From the IMG/VR virus record IMGVR_UViG_2671180755_000021: a DNA stretch of 3,950 nucleotides; one strand, 5' to 3'. The stretch comes from a virus. Its lineage: Duplodnaviria; Heunggongvirae; Uroviricota; Caudoviricetes. A program made the translations under genes and the position numbers. This document shows positions 1,452-3,751 of the stretch, in pieces. Below the pieces are notes generated by a model. That model had not been told where the DNA came from. It made no database searches and worked only from the letters and a program-made list of their open reading frames with translations. Every line of letters starts with the position of its first letter. Positions within the stretch are counted from its first letter, which is position 1.

Positions 1452-1576
1452 NNNNNNNNNNNNNNNNNNNNNNNNNNNNNNNNNNNNNNNNNNNNNNNNN
1501 NNNNNNNNNNNNNNNNNNNNNNNNNNNNNNNNNNNNNNNNNNNNNNNNNNNNNNNNNNNNNNNNNNNNNNNNNNNN
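1452..1576. other. Run of 125 N (assembly gap or masked sequence)
   Basis: Bases 1452-1576 are all n. Any ORF or motif called across this interval is unsupported. Confidence 1.
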
Positions 1577-2358: not shown

Positions 2359-2589
2359 TTAGTCAGAGTTTCTTGCTAACCAGCGACGCGCGCCAGATTC
2401 GGTTTTAAACGTTTTGCTTTTGGTATACGTCATCGCGGTGAACGTGCCGTCCTGGTTGGGAAACACGCCGCACACCAGAGATTCGTTGTTGCCAAGATCA
2501 AGAGTATCCATGCTGACCTCATATCCCCTTAACGCCGGGGTAGCGGAACAAAAACCTGCTGCATAGTTAAAGTTGAACCCTGCCGTCAT
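2359..2589 (-). CDS. Hypothetical small protein (76 aa), first gene downstream of the PL-like promoter
   Basis: Minus-strand ORF, ATG at 2587-2589, TAA at 2359-2361, with GAGG 9 nt upstream of the ATG. About 95 nt downstream of the predicted leftward promoter at 2690-2718. No recognisable motif. Confidence 0.6.
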   Translation of the reverse strand: MTAGFNFNYAAGFCSATPALRGYEVSMDTLDLGNNESLVCGVFPNQDGTFTAMTYTKSKTFKTESGARRWLARNSD

Positions 2590-2689
2590 GTTCTTACGCC
2601 TCGGGCTGGCTACTTAATCCCTGACCACTGCCGGGTAACTCTAGGTATTGCCCTGTATTGTGTGGGACGGGATGGGTTGGTATGGGAAA

Positions 2690-2718
2690 ACTATAGGAAA
2701 TGCCTAATTGCTTGTCAA
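2690..2718 (-). promoter_or_regulatory. PL-like leftward sigma-70 promoter, TTGACA-17-TATAGT
   Basis: On the minus strand: -35 TTGACA (plus coords 2713-2718), 17-nt spacer, -10 TATAGT (plus coords 2690-2695). Faces the 76-aa gene and is overlapped by operator-like sites. Confidence 0.6.
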
Positions 2719-2731
2719 TAGGCTACGCCTA
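2694..2731. promoter_or_regulatory. Left operator cluster (OL-like): two TAGGC-N3-GCCTA-type sites
   Basis: TAGGAAATGCCTA at 2694-2706 (one mismatch; overlaps spacer and -10) and TAGGCTACGCCTA at 2719-2731 (perfect; abuts the -35). Same half-sites as the cluster between racR and ydaS. A weaker relative TAGGTATTGCCCT lies at 2642-2654. Confidence 0.55.
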
Positions 2732-2826: not shown

Positions 2827-3303
2827 TTAAGTTCCTGTCTTGGTGATGTTCTGGCTTTTCCGTTTTGATTCTTGATTTTTCAGATAGTTAGCTACCTTCA
2901 TTTCCATTGCGGCAATGTAGGCACGAACGTCATGATCAACCCAACTAGGCTCCGTAGCATTTCCAGATAAGAGGAAAGCCACAATTGCTCTTTTTTCATC
3001 AGAGGCGGCTTGATAAAGGCTGTTTATGTCTAAAAGTTCACTTTTTGTATCTGAAGTGGATGGGGTTGGTATGGGGTATTCGTTAAGCCCCCAATGCTCT
3101 GGACCAACCACATCAGAAAAGAAACGCCATAGTTCTGGAAGTTTGTCTTTACTTATCGAACCTTTCTTAATCCAGTCATGGATTGATGGTGGTTGGACTT
3201 TGAAATGACGTGCGATTTCCGCCTTTGATTTGACGGCTCCTGATGCAATTTTTTTGTTAATGGCCTGCTCTATCGCTCGGCCTAAGTCTTTACCACTAAG
3301 CAT
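2827..3303 (-). CDS. racR: RacR-like prophage repressor (HTH DNA-binding protein), 158 aa
   Basis: Minus-strand ORF, ATG 3301-3303, TAA 2827-2829, AGGAGA about 11 nt upstream. N-terminal HTH-like segment (SKAEIARHFKVQPPSIHDWIKKGSISKDKLPELW). Divergent from a YdaS/YdaT-like pair, matching the racR-ydaS-ydaT organisation and the 158-aa length I recall for E. coli K-12 RacR. Symbol assigned from memory of that organisation, not from a search. Confidence 0.8.
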   Translation of the reverse strand: MLSGKDLGRAIEQAINKKIASGAVKSKAEIARHFKVQPPSIHDWIKKGSISKDKLPELWRFFSDVVGPEHWGLNEYPIPTPSTSDTKSELLDINSLYQAASDEKRAIVAFLLSGNATEPSWVDHDVRAYIAAMEMKVANYLKNQESKRKSQNITKTGT

Positions 3304-3332
3304 TGCTTAATAGTCTCCTATGCGCATCGCAT

Positions 3333-3396
3333 TAGGCAATACCTACTCTCGAAGCGTTAGGCATAGCCTATTGACAATTGCATTAGGCTAAGCCTA
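3333..3396. promoter_or_regulatory. Right operator cluster (OR-like): three TAGGC-N3-GCCTA-type sites at 25-26 bp spacing
   Basis: O1 TAGGCAATACCTA 3333-3345 (one mismatch), O2 TAGGCATAGCCTA 3358-3370 (perfect), O3 TAGGCTAAGCCTA 3384-3396 (perfect). O3 sits inside the 17-bp palindrome ATTAGGCTAAGCCTAAT (3382-3398). Confidence 0.6.
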
Positions 3397-3400
3397 ATAT
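3371..3400 (+). promoter_or_regulatory. PR-like rightward sigma-70 promoter, TTGACA-18-TAATAT, for ydaS-ydaT
   Basis: -35 TTGACA at 3371-3376, 18-nt spacer, -10 TAATAT at 3395-3400. O2 abuts the -35 and O3 overlaps the spacer and -10. The ydaS start is about 28 nt downstream. Confidence 0.6.
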
Positions 3401-3427: not shown

Positions 3428-3751
3428 ATGAAAAAAGATAACTATTCATTCAAACGAGCTTGTGCTGTTGTCGGTGGGCAATCAGCAATGGCTAGGCTTT
3501 TAGGTGTATCTCCTCCAAGCGTAAATCAATGGATCAAAGGTGTACGTCAGTTGCCTGCTGAGAGATGTCCTGCGATTGAACGAGCAACAAAAGGTGGTGT
3601 CCTGTGTGAAGAACTTCGTCCTGATGTTGATTGGACATACTTACGACGCTCGTCATGTTATTCGCAGAATATGTCGATGAAGCAACCAAATGACGAAAAC
3701 GATCATACCCGAAGCATCAAGAGGCAAATGATTCATGAAAATCAAACATGA
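3428..3751 (+). CDS. ydaS: YdaS-like Cro-type HTH protein, 107 aa
   Basis: ATG at 3428 with GGAG 8 nt upstream; TGA at 3749-3751. Segment SAMARLLGVSPPSVNQWIKGVRQLPAERCPAIE matches the Cro/YdaS-type HTH pattern as I recall it. The track's GTG start at 3407 has no ribosome-binding site and is unlikely. Confidence 0.8.
   Translation: MKKDNYSFKRACAVVGGQSAMARLLGVSPPSVNQWIKGVRQLPAERCPAIERATKGGVLCEELRPDVDWTYLRRSSCYSQNMSMKQPNDENDHTRSIKRQMIHENQT

Follow-up and report, generated by a model that had tools for sequence, protein, structure and literature searches.

The question raised by this locus is whether the repressor gene racR of a Rac-type prophage is flanked downstream, as it is upstream, by operators and an outward-facing early promoter, and which genes such a promoter would control. 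The window, by which we mean the whole stretch of 3950 bp that was analysed, is 100% identical to a lambdoid prophage located beside potC in many Escherichia coli O157:H7 genomes (Table 1). Its repressor shares 145 of 158 residues with K-12 RacR, and the 1.2-kb racR segment, covered to at least 80%, is present in 549 of 5426 complete E. coli genomes. A run of 125 N stands in the window for 337 bp of a recE pseudogene, so that the real distance between PL and xis is 212 bp longer than the window shows. To the right of racR, the Pfam matches YdaS_toxin/P22_Cro and YdaT_toxin identify the PR-side genes as Cro-type and CII-type, respectively.

Table 1. Positions of genes and regulatory elements in the 3950-bp window.
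Feature	Position	Strand	Sequence	Remarks
int	1-1119	minus		
xis	1088-1366	minus		
Run of 125 N	1452-1576			Replaces 337 bp of truncated exonuclease VIII/recE pseudogene (identical genome record, L001 4991-5327)
ORF, function unassigned	1729-2244	plus		171 aa
First PL gene, DUF1391 (YdaF/YdfA family)	2359-2511 (or up to 2589)	minus		50-aa core; alternative start at 2589 gives 76 aa
PL leader	2512-2682	minus		Shares about 91% identity with heteroimmune phage leaders; contains ATG at 2589
Predicted PL start	2683	minus	A	7 nt past the -10; inferred from canonical spacing
PL -10	2690-2695	minus	TATAGT	Promoter scan
OL1	2694-2706		TAGGAAATGCCTA	1 mismatch, in one half-site; spans spacer and first two bases of -10
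PL -35	2713-2718	minus	TTGACA	Promoter scan
OL2	2719-2731		TAGGCTACGCCTA	0 mismatches to TAGGCN3GCCTA; directly adjoins PL -35
racR, repressor gene	2827-3303	minus		158 aa; PGAP annotation RacR; 92% identity to K-12 RacR
OR cluster, four sites	3297-3309, 3333-3345, 3358-3370, 3384-3396			TAGGCN3GCCTA scan
PR	3371-3376 (-35), 3395-3400 (-10)	plus	TTGACA, TAATAT	18-nt spacer; 10/12 consensus
ydaS-type cro gene	3428-3751			Divergent from racR
ydaT-type cII gene	from 3735			Start only

What is known of RacR comes from K-12, where the protein was footprinted at OR on inverted repeats with the operator consensus (T/A)TAGGC-N3-GCCTA(T/A), one of which overlaps a near-consensus ydaS promoter with a mapped start (PMC9638921). 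The four OR sites of the window have the same order and spacing as those in the K-12 racR-ydaS intergenic region. No Pfam domain was found in the 158-aa RacR of the window, which is thus without a recognisable S24 cleavage domain; RacR has been placed among the Gifsy-type repressors, which were shown to remain uncleaved on induction and among which relatives are inactivated by antirepressors (PMC3121763). In size-exclusion chromatography K-12 RacR behaves as an octamer (PMC11014345). The recent accessible RacR literature deals with binding at the racR-ydaS intergenic region only and never mentions a left operator; the older Rac literature lies outside this coverage, and it is possible that the K-12 leftward promoter was described there.

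Downstream of racR, the initial annotation had proposed a second operator cluster made of the same half-sites and overlying a minus-strand promoter, and its two principal sites are found where it had placed them, one adjoining the -35 hexamer and the other lying over the spacer and the -10. The promoter likewise has the hexamers and spacing claimed for it: TTGACA (2718-2713), a 17-nt spacer and TATAGT (2695-2690), together matching the consensus at 11 of 12 positions. The promoter scan returned only two strong sigma-70 matches in the whole window, PL and PR, against 6.4 expected in shuffled sequences. These two face outward on either side of racR (PL, 2718-2690, minus strand; PR, 3371-3400, plus strand), have a 15-bp identical core in common and are each overlain by operators of one kind, so that the motif count and promoter scan bear out the earlier view of operator sets flanking the repressor gene over near-consensus outward promoters. 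With at most two mismatches, TAGGCN3GCCTA occurs six times in the window, twice on the left and four times at 3297-3396, and nowhere else; shuffles of the window contain 0.94 such matches on average, and none of 200 reaches six. Both left sites fit the footprinted RacR consensus, OL2 perfectly and OL1 with one mismatch; TTAGGC occurs in each of them on the minus strand, at 2727-2732 and 2702-2707, and each 13-bp core is flanked on both sides by T or A. The left order is operator, -35, five bases and an operator overlapping the -10, and the operator centres are 25 bp apart at PL and 26 bp apart at PR. The "exact mirror" of the right layout that had been described is therefore correct as to the order of operator, -35, operator and -10, but not to the base, as the PL spacer is one nucleotide shorter than that of PR (17 vs 18). 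A hairpin at 2791-2812, considered as a racR terminator, has a folding energy of -10.9 kcal/mol (z = -0.79) without a T-run and is not significant.

The cluster had also been taken to begin at 2642, and this part of the proposal found no support: TAGGTATTGCCCT (2642-2654), with three mismatches, is at chance level, and K-12 has not kept it; the CCTA half is missing there, as it is in the leaders of heteroimmune phages. At a threshold of three mismatches about 10 chance matches to TAGGCN3GCCTA are expected in the window. Two further candidates for a third left operator, TGGGTGCGACCTA (2738-2750) and TAGGAGTTAACTA (2778-2790), also have three mismatches each, and none of the three candidates is conserved outside Escherichia. 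The left cluster thus comprises two supported sites and not a lambda-like three. An 11-mer, GGCAATACCTA or its complement, is common to the PL leader (2642-2652) and the third OR site (3335-3345); judging from the sequences it is probably a coincidence lengthened by two lineage-specific substitutions, 9 of the 11 bases being found in the heteroimmune leaders as well. A palindrome with the half-sites in reversed order, ACCTAATAGGT (2746-2756), has its centre 26 bp from that of OL2 and is kept in the three compared Escherichia Rac-type loci (window, K-12 and E. ruysiae) but not shared by other genera; it may serve as an auxiliary contact or have no role.

In K-12 Rac the same operator pair and a TTGACA-17-TATAGT promoter are found downstream of racR, with TAGGTAATGCCTA as the counterpart of OL1. 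A scan of one genome per species gave 12 loci whose RacR relatives are 58-92% identical, and nine of these loci carry the OL/PL block; since three of the nine (L003-L005) repeat K-12 Rac, they amount to six non-redundant loci besides K-12 and the window, from E. ruysiae, Mixta, Proteus, two Achromobacter genomes and a Pseudomonadota metagenome bin. The block downstream of the RacR homologues consists of TTAGGC-N3-GCCTA, TTGAC(A/T), N5 and ATTAGGC-N3-G(C/T)(C/T)TA with an overlapping -10, the latter being TATAGT in Escherichia and TAATAT, TAACAT or TACTAT elsewhere. A distance of 25 bp separates the operators of the pair in the six non-redundant loci, and the position and register of OL1 are the same in K-12 and all diverged block-bearing loci. 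In an alignment of eight loci, 27 of 29 invariant columns fall within the two operators, the -35 and the -10, and the flanks are unalignable; TTGAC of the -35 is invariant in all eight (five genera and one unclassified metagenome bin), as are the OL2 columns. No operator pair was found within the 2.5 kb examined at the RacR loci of Klebsiella (L010), Nitrosomonas (L012) and Aeromonas (L014).

Two heteroimmune phages, Tritos and vB_EcoS-689R5, have unrelated repressors (139 and 214 aa) and provide a natural comparison. Tritos has window positions 2366-2677 in common with the prophage and 689R5 positions 2366-2684, each at about 91% identity, and both homologies thus break at, or at most 6 bp from, the predicted +1. 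Upstream of the break, promoter and repeat motif are peculiar to each phage, and the motif recurs on the PR side of that phage's repressor gene; as the sequence reads, the 689R5 promoter (TTGACT-17-TAGATT) would place its +1 on the A homologous to A2683 of the window. A homology break at +1, with a separate promoter and operators in each phage, makes 2690-2731 the left edge of an exchangeable immunity module, and the same break indicates that transcription begins where the common leader begins. The leftward start that had been predicted near 2683 therefore coincides with a breakpoint common to the heteroimmune phages. In Tritos a TAGTACAT-type motif occurs on both sides of the repressor gene (L015 1728-1943 and 2300-2450), and in 689R5 a AATCTAAA-type motif does so (L017 2228-2423 and 3040-3200); these repeats are candidate operators of the respective repressors.

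Published expression data from K-12 concern the same genes. When racR was shut off by a foreign regulator, ydaG, ydaF, kilR, ydaE and racC rose about 40-70-fold and racR mRNA fell, and this opposite course excludes the racR promoters as a source of read-through (PMC6765115). Lowered RacR raised xisR/intR about 100-fold (PMC11014345), and CRISPRi of racR gave the same derepression pattern (bioRxiv 2026.09.06.749655). In principle YdaS or YdaT could mediate this effect on the left genes, which would then be an indirect one.

We propose that 2690-2731 is very probably the RacR-repressed OL/PL of a Rac-type lambdoid prophage in E. coli O157:H7, and the OL/PL of this RacR-type immunity region is real and almost certainly functional. 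The layout, the non-random occurrence, the conservation across genera and the edge of the immunity module were computed here; the specificity of RacR and the derepression of the left genes are taken from the K-12 papers. Binding of the two left sites by RacR, the start site, the cooperativity and any looping between OL and OR are what we infer. In a lysogen, RacR dimers on OL2 and OL1 would exclude RNA polymerase from PL, as at the near-identical PR, and with centres 25 bp apart their binding would probably be cooperative. Loss of RacR, which could come from an antirepressor as in related Gifsy-type repressors (PMC3121763), would free PL to transcribe leftward from about 2683, giving an RNA with the conserved leader and the small DUF1391 gene; in intact relatives, transcription from PL would continue into the early-left genes (kil, recET, xis and int). 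Octameric RacR could also pair OL with OR about 640 bp away. A two-site OL on a strong PL could account directly for the 40-100-fold rise of kilR, recET and xis/int that has been published for falling RacR, and would complete the map of the Rac-type genetic switch; for O157:H7 it would say which genes of a decayed prophage stay under repressor control.

We give hardly any credence to the view that the resemblance arose by chance or is a relic without present function, for instance of a duplication of part of the PR region. The 15-bp core identical in PL and PR does make an origin by duplication conceivable, but the motif count is beyond the range of the shuffles, the block forms a conserved island between unconserved flanks in five genera and the metagenome bin, and the heteroimmune relatives carry a different promoter at the same place. 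A weightier reading takes the two left sites mainly as a remote auxiliary operator, from which a RacR octamer would form a loop of about 640 bp to OR, tightening PR repression and tuning racR autoregulation, with control of a leftward transcript being secondary. It is encouraged by the octameric state of RacR (PMC11014345), by lambda CI octamers bridging OL and OR, according to work cited in PMC8630535, and by the decay of most of the left operon in the O157:H7 prophage, where recE is a pseudogene and kil is missing. The -35 and -10 are nevertheless conserved like the operators across genera, which argues that the promoter itself is under selection, and the OL-OR distances of 614-641 bp across the homologue loci have no fixed helical phase, with the Achromobacter pair lying about 1.9-2.6 kb from racR. 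We regard this as a rather unlikely account of the main role of the sites, and one that would add to a RacR-repressed PL without excluding it. A compact loop switch, in which the RacR octamer bridges the two-site OL and OR across about 640 bp, can likewise be put forward only tentatively. If it is true, the left sites contribute to PR repression and racR autoregulation, and the published OL-less model of the Rac switch needs revision; the published octamer has so far been explained by the four racR-ydaS intergenic sites alone.

How far a RacR-repressed PL reaches is a separate matter. By read-through the initial annotation had extended its control to xis and int, which is plausible, and a search of the minus strand from PL to xis showed no intrinsic terminator. 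The alternative is that the PL transcript ends early through Rho, in which case xis and int are not PL-controlled in the O157:H7 prophage; we think this somewhat less likely than not. From 2359 to xis about 1.2 kb is untranslated, comprising the recE pseudogene and sequence antisense to ORF 1729-2244, and such a stretch after a C-rich leader makes Rho termination a real possibility. The first 40 nt of the leader contain 17 C and 4 G, and in its composition this C-rich, G-poor start resembles a site of Rho loading. Expression of the Rac left arm is known to be silenced by Rho (PMC4150792), and neither N/nut nor another known antitermination RNA was found with Rfam. Against early termination stand the lack of an intrinsic terminator and the rise of K-12 xisR/intR when RacR falls, though the operon there is translated throughout (PMC11014345). 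A YdaT/CII-type box near xis/int was also sought as an independent int promoter; the only match, at 1412-1429, has three mismatches and is at chance level.

OL/PL is the expected counterpart of a known lambdoid design and not a new kind of element; the arrangement has already been shown experimentally in Qin (dicBp) and in CP-933P (PL933P). K-12 Rac, besides its 92% identical repressor, has the four-site OR with PR, the OL pair with its TTGACA-17-TATAGT promoter and, base for base, the YdaT-box. It differs in that ydaG lies between leader and ydaF and an intact left operon (sieB, kilR, racC, recET and ralR) comes after them, whereas the O157:H7 prophage lacks ydaG, has recE as a truncated pseudogene and has a different plus-strand ORF at the sieB position. 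The closest analogue is dicA/dicC/dicBp of Qin, where the short repressor DicA, in the Gifsy-type group with RacR, has no cleavage domain (PMC3121763). Just downstream of dicA, the DicA-repressed dicBp drives ydfA, a homologue of the DUF1391 gene, and operators flank the repressor gene (PMC10448788); DicC ChIP peaks also lie on either side of dicA (PMC11430063). The ribosome-binding region of Qin ydfA is the same as that of the DUF1391 gene in the window. Qin differs in repressor specificity and operator sequence, in the three operators reported at dicBp versus two supported here, and in a shorter leader without the upstream ATG. CP-933P of O157:H7 (PaaR2/YdaS/PL933P) is also a cryptic lambdoid prophage; its PL analogue has the same -35 and -10 as its PR, and OR-type operators lie downstream of the repressor operon, with about 100-fold repression in reporter assays (PMC8630535). 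Its PaaR2 and operator sequences are unrelated to those of RacR, and a toxin-antitoxin pair is embedded in its repressor operon. As in lambda, the repressor gene lies between outward early promoters, each with tandem operators about 2.4 helical turns apart, the repressor is an octamer (PMC11014345 for RacR) and a CII-type activator circuit is found on the right. Unlike lambda, the operator cores are 13 bp and not 17 bp, RacR has no Pfam S24 peptidase domain, the left sites number two and not three, and OL and OR are separated by about 0.64 kb as compared with about 2.3 kb (2317 bp, the figure quoted from PMC2685085). N and nutL, looked for as the first PL functions, were not found in the prophage: the first gene is DUF1391, and the leader has no Rfam element and no significant fold. 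The "full lambdoid immunity architecture" ascribed to the locus is thus apt for the OL/PL-repressor-OR/PR order with Cro- and CII-type genes, but goes too far where the two left sites, the missing N/nut and the missing S24 domain are concerned.

The first gene under PL had been described as a 76-aa gene. It is the first PL gene, but its conserved part is a 50-aa DUF1391 core: Pfam PF07151 matches the 76-aa ORF (phrog_751) with E = 6.6e-30 over residues 28-75 only, the gene as annotated by PGAP starts with the ATG at 2511 and encodes 50 aa, and distant phage relatives match this core only. The 26-codon extension from the ATG at 2589 is uncertain. Its frame is kept in close relatives across a 3-nt indel, and two phage records annotate 78 aa; Qin and the distant DUF1391 genes start at the inner ATG, and Qin has no upstream extension. 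The leader ORF (2512-2589, MTAGF...), which begins at the conserved ATG, runs in frame into the DUF1391 gene in the window, in Tritos and in 689R5; its K-12 Rac counterpart (L002 7460-7527) can be read as an ORF of its own, of 18 codons, which stops just short of ydaG. Several of the leader-ORF differences from K-12 are synonymous, a hint of translation. A structured or known leader RNA (nut, put-like or sRNA) was dropped as a candidate: no Rfam match at E<=1 was obtained in the window, leader included, the single-sequence fold has z = +1.26, and the alignment, with one compensatory pair, is too little varied.

On the right side, ATGATTCATGAAAATCAA (3728-3745) exactly matches the YdaT-box that was footprinted in K-12, and it overlaps the start codon of the ydaT-type gene at 3735. 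A CII-like, PRE-type circuit boosting racR expression is probably intact in the O157:H7 prophage. ORF 1729-2244, which lies antisense inside the PL operon and occupies the position of sieB in K-12 Rac, was considered as a defence system and set aside, having no PADLOC match and belonging to phrog_1244, a family of unknown function. The N-terminal half of its product resembles a coiled coil and a CxxC...CxxC motif lies towards the C-terminus; the ORF recurs at 93.6% DNA identity in four PhiR29/PhiR49 phage records.
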